Shown one piece after another: positions 1 through 7,301 of a stretch of 7,301 bases of DNA (position 1 is its first letter; each line of letters starts with the position of its first letter). The position numbers and the translations under genes were made by a program. The DNA comes from a virus (lineage: Duplodnaviria > Heunggongvirae > Uroviricota > Caudoviricetes): IMG/VR virus record IMGVR_UViG_2703718791_000006, positions 1-7,301 of that record, one strand, 5' to 3'. Below the pieces are notes generated by a model, which searched no databases, was not told the origin of the DNA, and was given only the letters and a program-made list of their open reading frames with translations.

Positions 1-1
1 A

Positions 2-187
2 CACCCGCAAGGGCGGGACTCGCACAACCTGAATAAATACATCTGGCGCTTTATTGCCTTTGGCGCGTCAGAACGTCAAATCATCCACGTAACCGCCTGG
101 ACGGAACGCGAAGCGCGTAACCGTTGCCCGTCCGGTTGTGTTGCTGTATTCGCCGCCCGTATTCGTCAGGAGGTGCACCATGATTAA
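2..187 (+). CDS. 3' end of an upstream gene entering from the left edge (5'-partial); product unknown
   Basis: Frame 2 is the only frame open from the window edge to TAA at 185-187. Its stop overlaps the ATG at 180 of the next ORF (ATGATTAA), the arrangement expected for translational coupling. No start codon in window, no recognisable motif. Confidence 0.35.
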   Translation, partial: HPQGRDSHNLNKYIWRFIAFGASERQIIHVTAWTEREARNRCPSGCVAVFAARIRQEVHHD

Positions 188-392
188 TCTGTCACTTACT
201 GACCTTAACCGCATTCAGTTTCGTGAGAAATTCACAGGGCAGCTACTGGTCAATGTGGATAAAGGTCGCGTGGTGTGTAATTACCACTTACCAGATGAAG
301 CAATTGTCGCCACAAGGGAATCATTACAGGAAATCACAAAACGTGCCGGAATGATTAACACGAATATTCAGGGGATGCTTTATGCACAATAA
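180..392 (+). CDS. hypothetical small protein (70 aa from ATG 180)
   Basis: ATG at 180 lies 6 nt downstream of a perfect AGGAGG Shine-Dalgarno (168-173). The ORF track begins at GTG 138, but the SD favours ATG 180. Stop TAA 390-392 overlaps the next ORF start at 382. No recognisable family. Confidence 0.55.
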   Translation: MINLSLTDLNRIQFREKFTGQLLVNVDKGRVVCNYHLPDEAIVATRESLQEITKRAGMINTNIQGMLYAQ

Positions 393-612
393 AACCACAC
401 CGGACGCAGCAGAAGAAGCAATGCAAATACTGATACGTGCGCTCGTTGATGTTACCCACATGGTGGAGATTATGGAGAGAAAATCACAGTCGGAGCACGA
501 CAAAAGAAAACTTAAAACAATAAAAATAATTGCCAAAAACTCGCTGATAAAAGTTACAGACATCCTTAATGAGGACATTAAAAGAATAAGGGAGAAAATT
601 TGTGATGCATAA
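382..612 (+). CDS. hypothetical small protein, 76 aa, lysine-rich and predicted helical
   Basis: ATG 382 preceded by AGGGGA (369-374). Overlaps the upstream stop and the downstream start. The stretch is visibly AT-rich compared with neighbouring genes. No family recognised. Confidence 0.5.
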   Translation: MHNKTTPDAAEEAMQILIRALVDVTHMVEIMERKSQSEHDKRKLKTIKIIAKNSLIKVTDILNEDIKRIREKICDA

Positions 613-832
613 AATCCCTTTTGAAGTATTAATCCACTCTGAAAACGCATTAATTAAAGCGCGTGAAATGAATGCGTTGTTAATTAAATTAATTGAAGCA
701 ACGGAAGCTGGAGAAGAATCTTCGTCATTAATGCTTGCCGCCGTTCAGACATTACTATCGCCTGTAATTGATGAACTGGATAAGGCGATGGCAATTCACG
801 AAAATAATAACGCGCCCCACACCGGAGAATAA
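605..832 (+). CDS. hypothetical small protein, 75 aa, predicted helical
   Basis: ATG 605 preceded by GGGAGA (590-595); the track's start at 602 is a GTG. Overlaps the upstream stop at 610-612. Same size and helical character as the preceding ORF, so a tandem paralog is possible. Confidence 0.5.
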   Translation: MHKIPFEVLIHSENALIKAREMNALLIKLIEATEAGEESSSLMLAAVQTLLSPVIDELDKAMAIHENNNAPHTGE

Positions 833-837
833 AAATA

Positions 838-1137
838 ATGAAACTTAAATATTCTGGCTTAACTGCCAGTGGCAACACTCACCCTAAATTTACGCGCGGT
901 GATATTTACCGCGACCAGTACGGCGGCACGGTAATGATTAAGGGCGTGGCGGGACGGTGCGTAACTTACCGCCGTGAAGGTTACGAATATGATTGCGTGA
1001 TGCCTGTTTATCAGTTCCGGCGTGATTTTTCTCTGGTACAGACCGCGCCGCATAACGTGCCCACCAGCAACGCCAGGGCACGGGCAAACATCCAGAAGCT
1101 GAAAACCATGATTAACGTATTCAGGGGTAAAAAATGA
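838..1137 (+). CDS. hypothetical protein, 99 aa
   Basis: ATG 838 preceded by GGAG (824-827). Stop TGA 1135-1137 overlaps the helicase ATG at 1134 (ATGA coupling). No family recognised. Confidence 0.55.
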   Translation: MKLKYSGLTASGNTHPKFTRGDIYRDQYGGTVMIKGVAGRCVTYRREGYEYDCVMPVYQFRRDFSLVQTAPHNVPTSNARARANIQKLKTMINVFRGKK

Positions 1138-2882
1138 AACTGGCACCGAACGTAAAAAAACAGCCACGCGGAATAAAACACAAAGACACAGAGGTAATTA
1201 TCTTTGCGGGTAGTGATGCCTGGTCGCACGCGAAACAATGGCAGGAGCAGGATGGCCCCGCATCCGGCGATAATGTGCCGCCTGTGTGGCTTGGGCCAAA
1301 GCAGCTTGCCGAACTTGATGCGCTGAAAATTGTTCCGGATGGGAAAAAGCGCGTAAGGCTGTACCAGGCCGGAGAACTAGATTTAGTGGAGACCAAAAAG
1401 ATTGGTCAGAAGCTGGCGGCGGCAGATATTCAGGACGCAAATTTTTACCACGAAGGAATGCACGTCCAGAAGTGTGAAAACTGGCGGCGCTATCTGAATG
1501 CTGAGCGTGAAAATATTGCCGCAGGGCTTACCATGCCGGAGCAGAAAAATACGCAACTGGCACAAATGGCAGACAGTGAGCGCGCACAGATGCTTGCTGG
1601 TCGATTTGATGGCGTTTGTGTGCATCCGGAAAGTGAAATCGTTCACGTATGGCGCGGCGGGGTATGGTGTCCGGTCAGCACAATGGAACTTAGCCGCGAA
1701 ATGGTGGCGATCTATTCAGAGCACAGGGCCACTTTCAGCAAGCGCGTAATCAATAACGCCGTGGAAGCGTTAAAAGTTATTGCCGAACCAATGGGCGAGC
1801 CGTCCGGCGATTTGCTGCCGTTCGCCAATGGTGCGCTTGACCTGAAAACGGGGGAATTTTCCCCGCACACGCCGGAGAACTGGATCACCACGCACAACGG
1901 CATTGAGTACACGCCACCAGCACCAGGGGAGAATATCCGCGACAACGCGCCAAACTTTCATAAATGGCTTGAGCACGCAGCCGGAAAAGACCCGCGCAAG
2001 ATGATGCGTATATGTGCCGCGCTGTACATGATTATGGCGAACCGGTACGACTGGCAGATGTTTATTGAGGCCACCGGAGACGGCGGGAGCGGTAAAAGTA
2101 CATTCACACACATAGCCAGCCTTCTGGCAGGGAAACAGAACACGGTAAGCGCTGAAATGACATCGCTTGATGATGCTGGTGGACGTGCGCAGGTTGTCGG
2201 GAGTCGTCTTATCGTCCTGGCTGACCAGCCGAAATATACAGGCGAAGGAACGGGCATCAAGAAAATCACGGGCGGCGACCCCGTGGAAATTAACCCGAAA
2301 TATGAGAAGCGTTTTACGGCGGTAATCAGGGCGGTGGTGCTGGCTACCAACAATAACCCGATGATATTCACCGAACGGGCCGGAGGTGTGTCACGTCGTC
2401 GCGTAATTTTCCGTTTCGACAATATCGTCAGTGAGGCCGAAAAAGACAGGGAGCTACCGGAAAAGATTGCGGCTGAAATCCCTGTCATTATCCGCCGATT
2501 GCTGGCGAACTTTACCGACCCTGAGAAGGCACGGGCTTTACTACTGGAACAGCGTGACGGTGATGAAGCTCTGGCAATAAAGCAACAGACGGATCCGGTT
2601 ATTGAGTTTTGCCAGTTCCTGAATTTTCTGGAGGAAGCACGCGGCCTGATGATGGGCGGCGGTGGCGATTCAGTGAAGTACACGACCAGGAACAGCCTTT
2701 ACCGCGTCTATCTGGCGTTTATGGCATACGCAGGCAGGAGCAAACCGCTAAACGTGGCTGAGTTCAGCAAGGCCATGAAGCCAGCGGCGAAAGTTTACGG
2801 GCATGAATATATTACGCGAAAAGTTAAGGGAGTAACGCAGACCAACGCAATTACAACAGACGATTGCGACGCGTTTTTATAA
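1134..2882 (+). CDS. replication protein: P4-alpha / D5-type superfamily-3 helicase (phage/plasmid primase C-terminal-domain family)
   Basis: 582-aa ORF with Walker A GDGGSGKST (about nt 2079-2105) and a Walker B-like hydrophobic run ending in Asp (RLIVLADQ) in a central NTPase region, flanked by N- and C-terminal extensions as in P4-alpha/D5-family proteins. Last gene of a coupled operon and immediately followed by an iteron array. Whether a primase domain is present cannot be settled by eye. Confidence 0.7.
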   Translation: MKLAPNVKKQPRGIKHKDTEVIIFAGSDAWSHAKQWQEQDGPASGDNVPPVWLGPKQLAELDALKIVPDGKKRVRLYQAGELDLVETKKIGQKLAAADIQDANFYHEGMHVQKCENWRRYLNAERENIAAGLTMPEQKNTQLAQMADSERAQMLAGRFDGVCVHPESEIVHVWRGGVWCPVSTMELSREMVAIYSEHRATFSKRVINNAVEALKVIAEPMGEPSGDLLPFANGALDLKTGEFSPHTPENWITTHNGIEYTPPAPGENIRDNAPNFHKWLEHAAGKDPRKMMRICAALYMIMANRYDWQMFIEATGDGGSGKSTFTHIASLLAGKQNTVSAEMTSLDDAGGRAQVVGSRLIVLADQPKYTGEGTGIKKITGGDPVEINPKYEKRFTAVIRAVVLATNNNPMIFTERAGGVSRRRVIFRFDNIVSEAEKDRELPEKIAAEIPVIIRRLLANFTDPEKARALLLEQRDGDEALAIKQQTDPVIEFCQFLNFLEEARGLMMGGGGDSVKYTTRNSLYRVYLAFMAYAGRSKPLNVAEFSKAMKPAAKVYGHEYITRKVKGVTQTNAITTDDCDAFL

Positions 2883-2895
2883 TTTTTTGTAAAAG

Positions 2896-3124
2896 CCCTC
2901 TACCCCATCTACCTGAATGAAATAAACGCATATTATTCAACATGATAAGTGGGTAGAGGGCTAGGTAGAAGGCTAATAAAAGCTCTCTACCTCTTCTACC
3001 TGATTTTATCAGTTTCAGGTAGCAGGGTAGACGGCAGGTAGAGGAGCCCAAAAAGCTATCTACCCGCTGAAAGCCGCGCCATTACTGACATGATGAGCAT
3101 TCGGGTAGATGGGTAGAGGGGGGG
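2896..3124. repeat. iteron array, candidate satellite replication origin
   Basis: Twelve copies of GGTAGA or its complement TCTACC, often inside a longer GGGTAGAGG core. Top strand GGTAGA at 2952, 2964, 3026, 3037, 3104, 3112 and GGTAGC at 3018; TCTACC at 2899, 2908, 2986, 2995, 3059. Copies occur in pairs or triplets 9-12 bp apart, in alternating orientation blocks, with AT-rich stretches at 2915-2950 and 3125-3160. Sits between the helicase and the ssb operon. Confidence 0.6.
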
Positions 3125-3165
3125 AGGCACAACTAAAAACTTTTTAAACGAGGGGGTGAAAATAA

Positions 3166-3480
3166 ATGCGCATACATCAAAATCACTTAACAAACATGCC
3201 AGCCGAAAACATGAATCAGGGGCGACAAATGACCAAAATTCGCAGAGACAGAACAGAGCCAAAATATAAAGCGTTAGACATGACTGAGCATACCTTAAAG
3301 GTGGCAATCAGAACGATAGACCGCCACACGCGGGAAGGATACGCGAAGGAACATCCCGACCTGATAAGCGCATTCATGACCACAGCGGCGGCAAACTTTG
3401 CCACGCTGACAGAACGGGAGATTGCCGAAGCGGAACAGGTAACAACCATCAACGTTAAAACCGGAGAGGTGGAATCATGA
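3166..3480 (+). CDS. hypothetical protein, 104 aa, coupled to ssb
   Basis: ATG 3166 about 8 nt downstream of AGGGGGTG. Stop TGA 3478-3480 overlaps the ssb ATG at 3477. Alternative internal starts exist. No family recognised. Confidence 0.5.
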   Translation: MRIHQNHLTNMPAENMNQGRQMTKIRRDRTEPKYKALDMTEHTLKVAIRTIDRHTREGYAKEHPDLISAFMTTAAANFATLTEREIAEAEQVTTINVKTGEVES

Positions 3481-3887
3481 CAGCACAGATAGCCGCTTAC
3501 GGGCGGCTGGTGGACGACCCGCAGGTAAAACAGACCAGCAAGGGCACACCGATGACGCTGGCGCGTATGGCGGTCCCCCTTCCGTGCAGCCAGGCAGATG
3601 ACGGAACGGCTACGTTATGGCTATCGGTGATGGCATTTGGTAAGCAGGCCGACTTCCTGGCTAAACATCAAAAAGGCGACGTTGCCAGCATATCTGGCGT
3701 GATGCAGATAAGCCAGTGGACCGGACAGAACGGGGAAACGCGGCAGGGTTATCAGGTTATTGCAGACAGCGTAATCAGTGCCCGTGCGGCACGTCCTGGC
3801 GGGAACAGACGCAAAACCACAGGCGCACAGGGTAATCAGCCACCAGCGGGAGACGATGACCCCTACGGTGATGATATTCCGTTCTGA
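3477..3887 (+). CDS. ssb: single-stranded DNA-binding protein (short OB-fold SSB with acidic C-terminal tail)
   Basis: 136 aa. N-terminus GRLVDDPQV resembles E. coli SSB GNLGQDPEV, and an aromatic/Gly-Lys OB-fold block (WLSVMAFGKQA versus WHRVVLFGKLA) follows. A Gly/Pro/Gln-rich linker ends in DDDPYGDDIPF, the canonical SSB tail. Good SD (GGAGAGGTGG) upstream. Confidence 0.85.
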   Translation: MTAQIAAYGRLVDDPQVKQTSKGTPMTLARMAVPLPCSQADDGTATLWLSVMAFGKQADFLAKHQKGDVASISGVMQISQWTGQNGETRQGYQVIADSVISARAARPGGNRRKTTGAQGNQPPAGDDDPYGDDIPF

Positions 3888-3895
3888 ACGCACAG

Positions 3896-3919
3896 GCCGG
3901 AGAAAATCCGGCTTTTTGT
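3896..3919 (+). terminator. rho-independent terminator after ssb
   Basis: GCCGGA-gaaaa-TCCGGC hairpin (6-bp GC-rich stem) followed by TTTTT, 9 nt after the ssb stop. Confidence 0.6.
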
Positions 3920-3923
3920 ACCC

Positions 3924-3970
3924 AAAAAAAGCCCGATAAGTACAGGAGGAAGCTTATCGGGCTTTTGCTT
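3924..3970. terminator. second, possibly bidirectional, terminator hairpin
   Basis: 10-bp stem GCCCGATAAG/CTTATCGGGC with a 12-nt loop, A-run upstream (3924-3930) and TTTTG downstream. Confidence 0.45.
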
Positions 3971-4040
3971 ACGAGGTTAACAGCATGGTGACTACTGTTG
4001 CTGTAAATCATTTCATAATTTGCAACACAACTCAATTTTA

Positions 4041-4091
4041 TTGCGCAAAATGCAATCATGATTATAATCATAACTGGATGAACATCCAGTT
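4041..4091 (+). promoter_or_regulatory. candidate sigma70 promoter with two palindromic operators ahead of the capsid operon
   Basis: -35 TTGCGC (4041-4046), 16-bp spacer, -10 TATAAT (4063-4068). Perfect 14-bp palindrome ATGATTATAATCAT (4058-4071) overlaps the -10. Perfect 9-2-9 inverted repeat AACTGGATG-AA-CATCCAGTT (4072-4091) lies just downstream. Confidence 0.45.
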
Positions 4092-4124
4092 GTGATTTTT
4101 TAAGTCAAAGAGGAATTTCTGACT

Positions 4125-4331
4125 ATGGCAGAAGAGAAAAAAGGCGGTGTTTCGGTGTACATAAGCCCCGAAATCGTGGAGGTGCTCAAGCAGCGCCACA
4201 AAAAAAACTATGAGGCTGGCGTAGCGGCTGGACTGGATCCGCTGATGACGCCGGAGCCGTCGATAGGTTCACTTGTGCGCTCTTATTTACTTGCGGCGCT
4301 TGGGATGCATAAAAATTATGGGGGTGAATAA
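4125..4331 (+). CDS. hypothetical small protein, 68 aa; possible ribbon-helix-helix DNA-binding protein
   Basis: N-terminal GGVSVYISPEIVEVLKQ fits a beta-strand plus helix pattern as in Arc/CopG-type RHH proteins, and a second helix SIGSLVRSYLLAALG follows. Stop TAA 4329-4331 overlaps the capsid ATG (TAATG). The fold assignment is a guess from sequence pattern only. Confidence 0.5.
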   Translation: MAEEKKGGVSVYISPEIVEVLKQRHKKNYEAGVAAGLDPLMTPEPSIGSLVRSYLLAALGMHKNYGGE

Positions 4332-5386
4332 TGGCAGGCAAAGCAACGGCACTTAACACTAACCAGCTTTTTGCGTACCTGAATCGCGGGGATATTGCGG
4401 AATTTAAATTTAGTCCGCTGTTTACCACGCTGTTTTTCCCGAAAGTAGCGACATTCAACACCCAAAACATCATGCTGGATAACCTGGACACCGAAGAAGT
4501 CACTATGTCAGCGTTTTGCTCGCCTATGGTTGGTAGCCAGGTACAGCGCGATAAAGGGTACGAAACCAGCACGATTAAACCTGGCTACATGAAGCCAAAG
4601 CACGAAATCGATCCAACAAAAACCATCATGCGCATGGCTGGAGAAGATCCGGCACAGCTTAACGACCCAACCTATCGCCGTATGCGCCTGATTACTGGCA
4701 ACATGCGCCGCCAGGTAAACGCTATTAAAGCGCGTGTTGAATGGCTGGCGGTAAATGCGGTAACGACCGGAAAAAACATCATTGAGGGCGAAGGCATAGA
4801 GCGCTATGAAATCGACTGGAAGATACCGGAAAAAAACATCATAGAGCAGGCCGACGGGAAAAAATGGTCAGAGCAGGACAAAGAAACCCACGATCCAATC
4901 TATGATATCGAACTATACGCCGATCAGGCTGGTTGCCCCGCAAACGTCATGATTATGGGCGCTGAGGTATGGCGAACGTTACGCAGCTTTAAAAAATTCC
5001 GTGAGCTGTACGATCTTTCCCGTGGTTCAGAGTCCGCCGCAGAGCTGGCCTGTAAAAACCTGGGCGAAGTGGTGAGCTTTAAAGGCTATCTGGGCGATAT
5101 TGCCCTTATCGTCTATTCCGGCAAATACGCCGACAGCGACGGCACCGAAAAACATTTCCTTGAGCCTGATTTGCTGGTCTTGGGCAACACCAACAATAAA
5201 GGGCTGGTTGCTTATGGTGCGATTATGGATCAGGAAGCGGTAAGAACGGGCGCAACGCAAAACATGTACTACCCGAAAAACTGGATTGAGGACGGCGATC
5301 CGGCGATTGAGTACGTGCAGACGCACAGCGCACCGCAGCCGGTGCCGGCAGACATTCGCAAATTTGTTACCGTCAAAATTGGTTAA
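4331..5386 (+). CDS. major capsid protein, lambda gpE family (HK97 fold)
   Basis: 351 aa, colinear over its full length with lambda gpE (341 aa) as recalled. Conserved blocks: FKFSPLF versus FKFDPLF; PGYMKPKHEIDP versus PGYVKPKHEVNP; DPTYRRMRLITGNMR versus DPAYRRRRIIMQNMR; RGSESAAELACKNLGEVVSFKGYLGDIALIVYSGKY versus RGSNSELETAVKDLGKAVSYKGMYGDVAIVVYSGQY; YPKNWIEDGDPAIEY versus YPKNWVTTGDPAREF. SD GGGGTGA upstream. Confidence 0.9.
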   Translation: MAGKATALNTNQLFAYLNRGDIAEFKFSPLFTTLFFPKVATFNTQNIMLDNLDTEEVTMSAFCSPMVGSQVQRDKGYETSTIKPGYMKPKHEIDPTKTIMRMAGEDPAQLNDPTYRRMRLITGNMRRQVNAIKARVEWLAVNAVTTGKNIIEGEGIERYEIDWKIPEKNIIEQADGKKWSEQDKETHDPIYDIELYADQAGCPANVMIMGAEVWRTLRSFKKFRELYDLSRGSESAAELACKNLGEVVSFKGYLGDIALIVYSGKYADSDGTEKHFLEPDLLVLGNTNNKGLVAYGAIMDQEAVRTGATQNMYYPKNWIEDGDPAIEYVQTHSAPQPVPADIRKFVTVKIG

Positions 5387-5397
5387 CGGGGGATTCT

Positions 5398-5733
5398 ATG
5401 AACACTCCATACATTGAGTTATTTGCAGGCAGTCAGCAGGTATCCACGACGCTGGTACATTTTGCCGCTGATGCTGGCGTCATTCAGGAATTTACCCCGC
5501 TGATGCTGGCGGACAATGGCGAGTTTAAGCCGTGGGATGGTCAGGCGTCCGGAAAGGCTGTTTATCTGACTTCGTACCCCGTGGACACGTCAAAGCAGAA
5601 ATCAGCACAGTGCTACAAGACGGGGATCTTTAATATCGCCGCCGTGAACTGGCCCGAGAGCGTCGACACCGATGCGAAAAAATGCGCCGCCTTTGCGGGT
5701 TCTGGCGTATCCGTTCAGCCGCTGGCCCGATAA
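5398..5733 (+). CDS. head decoration protein, lambda gpD family
   Basis: 111 aa versus gpD 110 aa. Shared blocks: TPLMLAD / TPLMLD, WDG, YKTGIFN..WPE / YKSGTF..WPE, KKCAAFAGSG / KKRTAFAGT. SD GGGGGAT upstream. Gene order is capsid then decoration, the reverse of lambda's D then E. Confidence 0.8.
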   Translation: MNTPYIELFAGSQQVSTTLVHFAADAGVIQEFTPLMLADNGEFKPWDGQASGKAVYLTSYPVDTSKQKSAQCYKTGIFNIAAVNWPESVDTDAKKCAAFAGSGVSVQPLAR

Positions 5734-5745
5734 GCAGGGGGAACG

Positions 5746-6159
5746 ATGGCAACGAATGAAAGCATCATGACGCTACCGCTGGCGAGTAAATTTAAAGCCG
5801 AAGCGCGAGCAATGGCTGACAGAGGTTTATCAACCTACGAGGCCGTATATCAACTCAACAAACTGGAAGAGCAGGACAAGCCGCGCGCTGATGCGATTAT
5901 GGCGCTTCATGAGCATAACGACTATCAGCCGCTGTTACGTGCAATGGCAAACGTGCCTTGTATCGATGTTGGTACGGCTAAAAGCATCCTTAGCATGACC
6001 ATAGAGCAGGAACGCCAGAAGGTTGCGCCGGAGCTTACCGCAGCCTTTGAAAACTTTATGGACATGCACAGCCCGCAAGCCGTTTCAGCTGGCATGGCAT
6101 ACGACGGCAGAAACCCGGGCGATGATGGCGACATCGAGCGCATACTGAAAACCATCTGA
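5746..6159 (+). CDS. hypothetical protein, 137 aa, last gene of the capsid operon
   Basis: Strong SD AGGGGGA before ATG 5746 and a terminator directly after the stop. No convincing similarity to lambda FI, FII or Nu3 as recalled. Confidence 0.6.
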   Translation: MATNESIMTLPLASKFKAEARAMADRGLSTYEAVYQLNKLEEQDKPRADAIMALHEHNDYQPLLRAMANVPCIDVGTAKSILSMTIEQERQKVAPELTAAFENFMDMHSPQAVSAGMAYDGRNPGDDGDIERILKTI

Positions 6160-6165
6160 GACAAG

Positions 6166-6188
6166 GCCGGAGAAATCCGGCTTTTTTT
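6166..6188 (+). terminator. rho-independent terminator after the capsid operon, abutting cosQ
   Basis: GCCGGA-gaaa-TCCGGC hairpin followed by TTTTTTT. Near-identical to the terminator at 3896-3919. Confidence 0.6.
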
Positions 6189-6265
6189 ACGGGTCCTTTC
6201 CGGCATATGGACCCGTTACGGGGCGGCGACCTCGCGGTTTTTCGCTATTTATGACGTTTTTCCGT
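6187..6265 (+). other. lambda-type cos site, copy 1 (cosQ, cosN, I2-like proximal cosB)
   Basis: TTTACGGGTCCTTTCCGG (6187-6204) matches the lambda right-end cosQ region. GGGCGGCGACCT (6221-6232) is identical to the lambda 12-nt cohesive end, and the 17-bp spacing between them is kept. The following CGCGGTTTTTCGCTATTTATGA closely matches the lambda left end CGCGGGTTTTCGCTATTTATGA. No ATGTCCGGTT-type repeats before the terS start. Confidence 0.75.
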
Positions 6266-6269
6266 GAAG

Positions 6270-6296
6270 GTGACACCACCACCACTTGATTAATAT
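6270..6296 (+). promoter_or_regulatory. weak candidate promoter for the small terminase gene
   Basis: GTGACA (6270-6275), about 15-bp spacer, TAATAT (6291-6296). The alternative TTGATT (6286-6291) has a poor -10. Low confidence. Confidence 0.25.
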
Positions 6297-6321
6297 TTAA
6301 CCATGTAGTTAAGGTAACATT

Positions 6322-6756
6322 ATGATTGATAAAGCTTGTTTTGTAAGTCAGCAGGAAATAGCTGAACATTTCAAGGTTAACAGAACCACTATTCGCGCAT
6401 GGACCAAACAGGGGATGCCGTATCTTAATGCGGATCGCGGAAAGTCCGGCGGTTATCACATCGGGCATACATTGCTTTGGTCTTCAGGTAAAAGCCATCT
6501 TGAGGCCATTGGATATCACGTAGAAACCAGTGCGCTGGAAAAAATTATGTTTGCCAGGCTGCTTTCATCTGAGCGTGACGAGTACTCCAGTGAAGAAACA
6601 GAACATCGATTTGATGAAGGTTTGCAGATTTACGGATATTCACCGGAAGATGTGAGCAAGGCACGAAATAAAATGGCTGGCTTTCTGGCTGGGTGGCGTC
6701 ATGCCGTAAGCGTTCGCCGTGCCAGCATGGAGCAATCAGCCGATACAGAACAGTAA
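6322..6756 (+). CDS. small terminase-like protein, phage Nu1 family (N-terminal winged-HTH DNA-binding domain)
   Basis: 144 aa. N-terminus SQQEIAEHFKVNRTTIRAWTKQGMPYL parallels lambda Nu1 KKQLADIFGASIRTIQNWQEQGMPVL. It is shorter than Nu1 (181 aa) and diverges after the HTH. It sits about 90 bp downstream of the cos copy 1 cohesive end, where lambda has Nu1. Confidence 0.75.
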   Translation: MIDKACFVSQQEIAEHFKVNRTTIRAWTKQGMPYLNADRGKSGGYHIGHTLLWSSGKSHLEAIGYHVETSALEKIMFARLLSSERDEYSSEETEHRFDEGLQIYGYSPEDVSKARNKMAGFLAGWRHAVSVRRASMEQSADTEQ

Positions 6757-6824
6757 AGCCGATAACTTGTTAATCACTCGCAGCAATGCATGTGATTTGT
6801 GCACACTTTCGGTTAACTGGTTCG

Positions 6825-6921
6825 ATGTCCGGTTTTAGTGTCTGTTTTTTGCGCATGTCCGGTTCATGGAAAGCATGTTTTTATATTTTTCATATGGTTA
6901 ACTTGCAGAGAAACCGGACAT
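6825..6921. repeat. three 10-bp ATGTCCGGTT repeats in a cosB-like R-I-R-R layout (candidate small-terminase binding sites)
   Basis: ATGTCCGGTT at 6825-6834 and 6855-6864 on the top strand and inverted (AACCGGACAT) at 6912-6921, with an AT-rich stretch (about 6876-6896) between the direct pair and the inverted copy. GGTTAACT also recurs at 6810 and 6895. Lies between the terS stop and the inverted cohesive-end sequence. Confidence 0.5.
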
Positions 6922-6924
6922 GGA

Positions 6925-7003
6925 TCCCGAAAAATTTTCATAAATAGTGAAAACGCGCGAGGTCGCCGCCCCGTAACGGGCCATAATTCCAGGAAGGACC
7001 CGA
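6925..7003 (-). other. second lambda-type cos site, inverted (cosQ-like, cosN, I2-like)
   Basis: Bottom strand reads CGGGTCCTTCCTGG..CGTTACG-GGGCGGCGACCT-CGCGCGTTTTCACTATTTATGAAAATTTTT. The cohesive-end 12-mer occupies 6960-6971 on the minus strand. 6956-6980 is a perfect 25-bp inverted repeat of 6212-6236, with imperfect similarity continuing on both sides. The cosQ-like element differs from lambda at a few positions. Confidence 0.65.
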
Positions 7004-7035
7004 CGACACCAGGCTATCAGAACGATGGGGGCACA

Positions 7036-7301
7036 ATGACAGAAGCCGAACTACTGCGATTAATCCGCCGCGTTACCGGAATCAGCCAGCAGCATGACGA
7101 ACAGGGCACGCAACCGGACAGCGTGACCGCTGAAAATTATGCGCGTGTTGTTGCTGAGGTGATGCGCCGTGATGGTATTGAGCTTAACGGCGTGGATATG
7201 CGCAACATACGAACCAGAGTCCTTGAGTTGCTGGCATACCGTCGCCGCGTGGAGATGTATCGGGAGAAGGAGAAAATCACGTACCACTGGAAGAAGCCGG
7301 A
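7036..7301 (+). CDS. 5' part of an ORF running off the right edge; product unknown
   Basis: ATG 7036 preceded by GATGGGGG, open in frame 1 to the window end (MTEAELLRLIRRVTGISQQHDEQ...). Not in the ORF track because it has no stop in window. No match to the lambda gpA N-terminus; resemblance to the lambda FI N-terminus is too weak to call. Confidence 0.45.
   Translation, partial: MTEAELLRLIRRVTGISQQHDEQGTQPDSVTAENYARVVAEVMRRDGIELNGVDMRNIRTRVLELLAYRRRVEMYREKEKITYHWKKP

Follow-up and report, generated by a model that had tools for sequence, protein, structure and literature searches.

We analyzed a 7,301-nt stretch of DNA (positions 1 to 7,301 of the IMG/VR virus record IMGVR_UViG_2703718791_000006; hereafter, the window), which is 92% identical, over 88% of the sequence, to EcCICFT073 of E. 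coli CFT073, which serves as the model phage-inducible chromosomal island of Gram-negative bacteria. The 237-nt intergenic region at 3888-4124, between ssb and an open reading frame (ORF) for a 68-aa protein, is found to contain the promoter of the capsid operon of this satellite (4041-4091), in our reading a sigma-70 promoter in which a predicted LexA operator overlies the predicted transcription start, an arrangement that would be analogous to operon I of the staphylococcal pathogenicity islands (SaPIs). We put the chances that LexA represses this late promoter at about even, and the capsid operon is probably switched on by the signal that also wakes the helper prophages. What is shown are the sequence anatomy, its conservation, the score against LexA matrices, and, from published RNA-seq, the distinct regulation of the operon; the start site, LexA binding, and inducibility by the SOS response are inferred.

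Under the mechanism we propose, two upstream terminators would insulate the late promoter from the early replication genes, and a LexA dimer on 4072-4091 would cover the start and the first transcribed bases, blocking RNA polymerase. DNA damage would elicit the RecA-stimulated self-cleavage of LexA, which also induces lambdoid helper prophages, and the loss of LexA would free the promoter, allowing the 68-aa protein, the capsid, decoration, and scaffold-like proteins to be made.

A conserved, probable sigma-70 promoter upstream of the capsid operon

The promoter, on the + strand, consists of a -35 hexamer TTGCGC (4041-4046; TTGCAC in most relatives), a 16-nt spacer, and a -10 hexamer TATAAT (4063-4068) that matches the consensus perfectly (6/6), with transcription predicted, from the position of the -10 hexamer, to start 6-8 nt downstream, at 4075-4077. 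A promoter scan of the window did not list this promoter because its -35 hexamer matches TTGACA at 3 of 6 positions only (TTG). The perfect -10 suggests that the promoter has intrinsic activity held down by repression and does not need an activator.

Two palindromes adjoin each other here. Palindrome 1, ATGATTATAATCAT (4058-4071), is a perfect 14-bp palindrome that contains the -10 hexamer, and it abuts palindrome 2, AACTGGATG-AA-CATCCAGTT (4072-4091), a perfect 9-2-9 inverted repeat that forms the 20-mer AACTGGATGAACATCCAGTT, with CTG at 4074-4076 and CAG at 4087-4089 separated by 10 nt. These are the only perfect inverted repeats in the window with arms of at least 7 nt and a spacer of at most 4 nt. 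Both had been described in an earlier reading of this DNA made from the letters alone (the sequence-only reading) and proved correct when read base by base; missed in that reading were a terminator-like extension of the second repeat, a third dyad, and the absence of each palindrome from some family members.

For the comparison across relatives, we collected 80 IMG/VR loci encoding the 68-aa protein and added loci of distant homologs: those encoding Salmonella-type proteins (53-56% identical), the divergent E. coli ETEC1734 clade, the distant locus L207, and L087, an E. coli island that carries an HK97-type late module. Scans of genome contigs with the 68-aa and capsid proteins yielded no confirmed loci, and viral contigs scanned with a degenerate 17-mer gave, besides a majority of chance matches, the ETEC-type and L127 variants. 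Conservation was evaluated on 51 distinct upstream sequences from the main and Salmonella-type clades, to which the statements on invariance below refer. In this set, conservation within a block at ~4008-4101 far exceeds that on its 5' side; TTGC of the -35 hexamer is invariant, as is TATAAT with one exception, and the core of palindrome 1, TGATTATAATCA, is invariant or nearly so.

The block also appears in front of other genes. In L087, the promoter block up to ...TATAATCCTGACTGG is joined to the leader of an HK97-type module (capsid, protease, portal) like that of Sakai Sp7, and palindrome 1 is lost. This fusion provides natural evidence for a portable promoter block that ends near the predicted start. 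Comparison of L087 3000-3110 with L215 (Sakai Sp7) 12500-12620 places the recombination junction inside the left arm of palindrome 2, just 3' of the predicted start; in O157 Sakai, the roxA-phoQ site is occupied by Sp7, a different, HK97-type satellite. With the -10 hexamer and TTGC conserved, the block reused in L087, and the CFT073 homologs of the operon genes, c1498-c1501, regulated as a unit (see below), the earlier assignment of this stretch as the capsid-operon promoter is supported.

Upstream of the -35 hexamer, the segment at 4008-4040 on the + strand, ATCATTTCATAATTTGCAACA..., is near-invariant in the E. coli and Salmonella-type relatives and is retained in L087 despite the different late module, with divergent sequence 5' of it; it is possibly an UP element or an activator site. 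The third dyad, ATTGCG-N5-TGCAAT (4040-4056), overlaps the -35 hexamer. It is perfect in most relatives (ATTGCA/TGCAAT) and occurs twice in the distant L207 (2384-2400 and 2416-2432), where palindromes 1 and 2 are absent; of the operator-like elements in this promoter family, it may be the one retained most widely. The dyad may resemble inverted CytR octamers, GTTGCATT. The ATTGCA-N5-TGCAAT dyad was not found upstream of alpA in CFT073, so nothing here points to one regulator acting on both the late promoter and the island's master switch.

Other promoter types and positions were considered. The candidate hexamers 5' of 4066 (CATAAT, 4014-4019; TTGCAA, 4020-4025) have no conserved partner hexamer at the proper spacing, and, checked by eye, the lambda CII-type TTGC-N6-TTGC, the Ogr/Delta-type TGT-N12-ACA, CRP sites, and an extended -10 (TGn) do not fit. 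Among 50,697 phage records, blastn found no match to the promoter block, indicating that the block was not captured from a helper late promoter.

Palindrome 2 as a predicted LexA operator

We scored palindrome 2 with the heterology index (HI) of Lewis et al. using two matrices, one built from 27 E. coli sites and the other from the 18 boxes located 5' of UV-induced genes (PMC3009722 Table 4). The HI of palindrome 2 is 6.5 with the 27-site matrix and 7.0 with the 18-site matrix; leave-one-out scoring of the 18 published boxes gives HI values up to 12.8 (median, 7.4), with ruvA at 8.5 and cho at 7.9. The next-best site in the window has an HI of 13.8-14.2, so that palindrome 2 is the best by about 7 units, and a site as good occurred in 1 of 300 shuffles of the window. 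All natural variants of the 20-mer score between 5.9 and 8.1. The sequence-only reading had recognized the CTG-N10-CAG geometry of an SOS box but had reservations, given that the repeat reads CTGG/CCAG rather than the consensus CTGT/ACAG. The geometry stands, with a score in the functional range, whereas the reservation falls away: two proven boxes, those of ruvA, CGCTGGATATCTATCCAGCA, and cho, CACTGGATAGATAACCAGCA, also read CTGG...CCAG (PMC3009722 Table 4).

The pattern of variation within the 20-mer points in the same direction. Positions 3-8, 13-14, and 16-19 are fixed, such that CTGGAT..AT(C/A)CAGT is invariant or nearly so, and variation is confined to the flanks, the center (GAAC, AAAC, GTTC, GAAA, GTAC), and position 4086 (C/A), a conservation profile that mirrors the information profile of LexA sites. 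In the C4086A variants (position 15 of the 20-mer), which occur in several backgrounds, the right arm becomes the consensus ACAG and the match to LexA improves, at the price of a mid-stem G:A mismatch in the hairpin that the repeat could form; of all our observations, these variants speak most clearly for a site bound by a LexA-type protein and against an RNA stem. The 20-mer begins 3 nt past TATAAT and covers the predicted start at 4075-4077. Salmonella LexA boxes with an HI of ~6.3 that overlap the start site confer tight LexA-dependent control (PMC8072944). Judged by its sequence, palindrome 2 is a good candidate LexA operator in a position from which such operators act.

Outside the window, LexA-like 20-mers are also present between int and alpA, at 4420-4439 of L001 (CFT073; TACTGTTTTTTTATACACTG, HI 5.7) and at 6261-6280 of L215 (Sakai Sp7; TACTGGTTTTTTATACACTA, HI 5.0). 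Both have a perfect left half and CAC in place of CAG; in published work, alpA is not SOS-induced.

Could the palindromes be without any regulatory role? Under this explanation, the first would simply follow from TATAAT in AT-rich DNA and the second would be carried along, conserved, in a young promoter cassette that undergoes recombination. Of 500 dinucleotide shuffles of the window, 42% contained a perfect palindrome of 14 bp somewhere, so that palindrome 1 alone is unremarkable window-wide, and 10.6% contained a repeat with arms of at least 9 nt; within the 237-nt intergenic region, the respective figures are 2.2% and 0.55%. Furthermore, AT plus TATAAT already accounts for 8 of the 14 bp of palindrome 1 (ATTATAAT), high conservation extends over the whole 95-bp block, which makes conservation of a sub-part weak evidence, and relatives without either palindrome still have the operon. 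Against this, conservation reaches the Salmonella-type relatives, in which the proteins are only ~55% identical, a LexA score such as that of palindrome 2 is expected about once per 300 windows of this size, and the site sits exactly on the predicted start. We therefore consider the absence of any regulatory role quite improbable. It is conservation that raises both palindromes above chance. The extra TG..CA pairs of palindrome 1 are invariant, and its outer pair, among 29 sequences, is A..T in 11, C..G in 9, and mismatched in 9. Palindrome 1 is mostly the -10 hexamer itself plus the symmetric ATGATT/AATCAT arms, which may be recognized by a second regulator.

Separate regulation of the operon and points against LexA control

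Published RNA-seq of CFT073 shifted from 23 to 37 C shows c1498, c1499, c1500, and c1501 up by 2.2, 2.1, 1.5, and 1.2 log2, respectively, and the flanking genes flat, at 0.24 log2 for ssb (c1497) and 0.33 log2 for rpp (c1503) (PMC12890032 supplement). These are gene-level data; the rise of c1498-c1501 without c1497 and c1503 nevertheless identifies a separately regulated unit.

Several observations weigh against LexA control. In the same data set, sulA and dinI were unchanged in the temperature shift while the operon rose, and perC was also up by 1.9 log2, not significantly (PMC12890032 supplement), so some read-through from upstream may contribute. A further input besides LexA must act on the promoter for the operon to rise without induction of sulA and dinI; relief at 37 C of silencing by H-NS is a plausible guess for a temperature input. 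The -35 hexamer is a 3/6 match and the start is a prediction. The ETEC1734 clade has no box (HI 22.9 at the same place), nor does L207, and both keep the operon; the promoter is retained in the ETEC1734 clade, with TAAAAT as its -10 hexamer; the conserved outer arms and T-run around palindrome 2 are not explained by LexA. Island induction (alpA) is reported to be SOS-independent, and the island also works on phage infection (PMC6092414). Finally, our literature search uncovered neither an account of this promoter nor one of LexA acting on E. coli islands, and no chromatin immunoprecipitation, electrophoretic mobility shift assay, or SOS transcriptome of a carrier strain; the one data set located is the temperature shift.

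The expression data also bear on the possibility that palindrome 1 is a Fur box and the operon is iron-regulated. The sequence AATCATGATTATAATCATA (4054-4072), which overlaps the -10 hexamer, agrees with the classical 19-bp Fur consensus at 14 of 19 positions, the best in the window; however, AT-rich palindromes fit this consensus easily. Moreover, the 2- to 5-fold rise of the operon from 23 to 37 C came without SOS induction and ran counter to the Fur regulon, with fepA at -2.0, entC at -1.0, and fiu at -0.9 (PMC12890032 supplement). We rejected the Fur box on account of this opposite movement and regard its chances as close to nil.

Three other explanations, namely a dimeric repressor other than LexA, a terminator hairpin, and the lack of function considered above, are not mutually exclusive with LexA control.

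A possible dimeric repressor and the 68-aa protein

The palindromes could instead be operators of a dimeric repressor encoded by the satellite or its helper. In the simplest version, the 68-aa product of the first gene of the operon, as a ribbon-helix-helix (RHH) protein, would bind the ATGATT/AATCAT half-sites at 4058-4063, 4066-4071, and 4092-4097 and autoregulate the operon, possibly also binding the -35 dyad. The half-site does occur three to four times in 45 bp, and in L088 (the IMG/VR contig of L002) all three half-sites change together, to CTGATT/AATCAG/CTGATT, although this covariation could reflect linkage between sites 13 bp apart. The A..T and C..G forms of the outer pair of palindrome 1 are commoner than in shuffles, but the pair is mismatched in about a third of the distinct sequences. 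Likewise, the ETEC1734 clade keeps the arms of palindrome 1 and the 68-aa gene and has lost palindrome 2, whereas L207 has the 68-aa gene but not palindrome 1.

The protein itself offers little to this explanation. Its family is tiny, with 25 proteins (90%-identity cluster representatives) in a non-redundant set of 5.8 billion sequences and 16 relatives in a set of 1.8 billion representatives, and corresponds to PHROG 3255 (function unknown). The protein of the window matches no Pfam family at any threshold; below threshold, 3 of 11 homologs match RHH_1 (E 0.15-0.2, the strand and first helix) and BrnA_antitoxin (E 0.017). The AlphaFold model, with a predicted local distance difference test (pLDDT) score of 70, has an extended N-terminal segment (residues 8-13) and two helices (15-34 and 47-59) joined by a long, 12-residue loop unlike that of canonical RHH proteins; Foldseek gave no match, and hhalign against CopG and Arc detected no similarity. 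RHH autoregulation, which the sequence-only reading had proposed, is possible but not supported, the hints being confined to the weak matches of a few homologs. Overall, we deem a dimeric repressor other than LexA unlikely.

An extended hairpin with terminator-like features

Palindrome 2 is the inner part of an extended inverted repeat on the + strand (4066-4101), with 15-nt arms (4066-4080/4083-4097) that are complementary except for a single T:G position, followed by T6; the left arm overlaps the -10 hexamer and the predicted start. Hence another candidate function: the hairpin at 4066-4097 together with the U-run would be an intrinsic terminator, serving as a third barrier to read-through from the early operon or as an attenuator in a leader coming from upstream, with the transcripts of the embedded promoter starting inside the left arm and so escaping termination. 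A terminator scan flags 4066-4101 (14 pairs, a loop of 4, then a T-run, U6), and the RNA folds at -17.7 kcal/mol (z -5.2).

Several comparative observations favor the pairing. In the Salmonella-type relatives, an indel of 1 nt becomes an internal loop, with the AAUCAU/AUGAUU pairing and the U-run kept; in L127, the changes C4069T and G4094A preserve the long hairpin and break palindrome 1; the right-arm changes at 4091/4092 are all pair-compatible, and the left-arm A-to-G changes give G:U. Across 29 distinct ungapped sequences, 94.5% of the cells of the long helix are paired and three pairs have changed on both sides, which exceeds the pairing in shuffles, a control that ignores relatedness. 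The ETEC1734 clade retains the outer arms and the U-run. On the other hand, 4071/4092 is mismatched in 16 of the 51 sequences and a mid-stem G:A mismatch is found in 4, and a palindromic protein site would yield identical pairing statistics.

The position of the hairpin argues against termination. The sole conserved promoter starts inside the left arm, such that its own RNA keeps a 4-bp remnant (-3 kcal/mol) and no stem, and no conserved promoter was found upstream of 4066; the hairpin could thus act only on read-through from the early operon, and two strong terminators already lie 5' of the hairpin. Of the hallmarks of an intrinsic terminator, a stable stem and a U-run are present, but the stem does not lie wholly within the transcript and its base is A:U-rich rather than G+C-rich (of the five pairs next to the U-run, four are A:U and one is C:G), which is unfavorable for termination. 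Rfam, searched with the whole window at E<=1, gave no match. We accordingly hold a terminator to be rather improbable and rank it as a secondary or additional role of the region. Attenuation by competition between a hairpin at 4058-4071 and that at 4066-4097 was rejected, the first hairpin being far too weak.

The two terminator-like hairpins upstream are t1, after ssb (3894-3919, +; GGCCGGAGAAAATCCGGCC-like stem, T5; -14.2 kcal/mol, z -3.0), conserved in most relatives, and t2 (3927-3970; perfect 14-nt arms 3927-3940/3953-3966; -22.1 kcal/mol, z -4.6), found in nearly all upstream variants irrespective of the preceding gene. With an A-run before it and a T-run after it, t2 could act in both directions.

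A combined arrangement can also be envisaged, a compact, 60-bp multi-input switch in which a LexA box on the start, a second operator for the RHH-like protein (the ATGATT/AATCAT arms and/or the ATTGCA-N5-TGCAAT dyad over the -35 hexamer), and the extended dyad, as a terminator of read-through from the early operon, act together. We give this combination only a slim chance. If it were true, SOS would be the sole condition, and the operon's own promoter the sole origin, of capsid-operon transcription, with the promoter embedded in a terminator; no multi-input switch of this kind has been described for Gram-negative phage satellites.

Gene order around the promoter

The gene order of the window opens with a DUF4222 protein, followed by a primase/D5-type replicase (1134-2882) and origin iterons (2890-3124), then a small ORF and the SSB gene (3477-3887). 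The iterons, GGGTAGA.GG in both orientations, flank an AT-rich stretch 3' of the primase gene and thus match the published description of the replication origin of the island.

Downstream of the promoter, a Shine-Dalgarno sequence, AGAGGA (4109-4114, +), kept in all relatives, precedes the first gene of the operon, the 68-aa ORF (4125-4331, +; c1498 homolog; phrog_3255; possibly RHH-like). Its stop codon overlaps the ATG of the capsid gene (TAATG, 4329-4333), suggesting translational coupling of the two. Then follow, all on the + strand, genes for a lambda gpE-like major capsid protein (4331-5386; c1499 homolog; Pfam Phage_cap_E, 2e-52), a lambda gpD-like head decoration protein (5398-5733; c1500 homolog; Pfam HDPD, 6e-18), and a 137-aa scaffold-like protein (5746-6159; c1501 homolog; phrog_53, 5.5e-8). 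The 137-aa protein matches the C-terminal portion of phrog_53, a family of head maturation proteases, which suggests a Nu3-like scaffold and an operon encoding capsid, decoration, and scaffold, with no protease or portal. The probable end of the operon is a terminator-like hairpin (6163-6191, +; GGCCGGAGAAATCCGGCC-like stem, T7; -14.6 kcal/mol); in CFT073, c1503, which lies downstream, is not co-regulated with c1498-c1501. A cosN-like site lies between this hairpin and the Rpp homolog (6322-6756; c1503 counterpart).

The lambda cosN core, GGGCGGCGACC, is present in three exact copies, at 2270-2280 (+) inside the primase gene, at 6221-6231 (+) 5' of rpp, and at 6961-6971 (-), 3' and on the opposite strand, with 0.2 expected by chance; two cos sites have been reported for EcCICFT073. 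The window lacks the perC-like gene that CFT073 has between ssb and the late promoter. Comparison of 3888-4124 with L001 (CFT073) 10081-10593 shows that the content of the ssb-promoter interval varies, other relatives carrying yet other sequences; despite this variability, the t2 terminator and the promoter block are constant across relatives.

Significance and comparison with known systems

Published work on Gram-negative islands covers AlpA, the replicon, the cos sites, and Rpp, and the control of the late (capsid/packaging) zone is undescribed. SOS-controlled promoters of mobile elements are an already known class; our search of the literature turned up no account of this promoter. A LexA operator, if real, would explain why c1498-c1501 form a separate unit in the transcriptome. 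The same genes are of practical interest as the cargo slot (for cas9 and melA) of engineered EcCICFT073 (PMC10530653, PMC10460865), and the lambda E/D-like capsid proteins of the E. coli island are dispensable for transfer (PMC6092414). Knowledge of the native promoter and operator tells those engineering EcCICFT073 what expression to expect or which parts to remove.

Four known systems invite comparison. The late promoters of P4 and P2 are activated by Ogr/Delta through TGT-N12-ACA at about -55. Like the promoter described here, they are late morphogenetic promoters of satellites that need timing with the helper, but no TGT-N12-ACA lies 5' of the window promoter, which has a perfect TATAAT -10 hexamer. 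In the lambdoid pR'-qut-tR' late control region, a strong promoter is closely followed by a terminator, reminiscent of the strong promoter and close terminator-like hairpin found here in an element that parasitizes lambda and phi80. The hairpin in the window, however, is not a downstream part of the transcript but overlaps the -10 hexamer and the start, the block has no similarity to phage records, and there is no recognizable Q-binding element in the window.

The closest matches in sequence are the ruvAB and cho SOS boxes, which share with palindrome 2 the 20-mer length, CTGG on the left and CCAG on the right, a comparable HI, and a position at the promoter (PMC3009722 Table 4); the arms CTGGAT...ATCCAG are identical to those of the ruvA box. 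Palindrome 2 differs from these boxes in its center, GAAC, which is not AT-rich, in the extension of the dyad to 15-nt arms with a T-run, and in its host element, a mobile satellite.

The closest match in logic is SaPI operon I, the staphylococcal packaging/capsid operon, described as LexA-controlled (Ubeda et al. 2007, as cited in PMC6092414 and PMC6739421). SaPIs belong to another phylum, with another LexA consensus and no sequence relation to the window, and their LexA control was shown experimentally, whereas control of the E. coli satellite is a prediction. Common to both is a satellite promoter that drives the capsid/packaging module, stands apart from the master switch of the island, and carries an SOS box (a predicted one in the window), which would tie the module to the signal that induces helper prophages. 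If LexA does act here, the satellite would read the SOS signal of the host directly, in parallel to its helper, converging on the logic of SaPI operon I.

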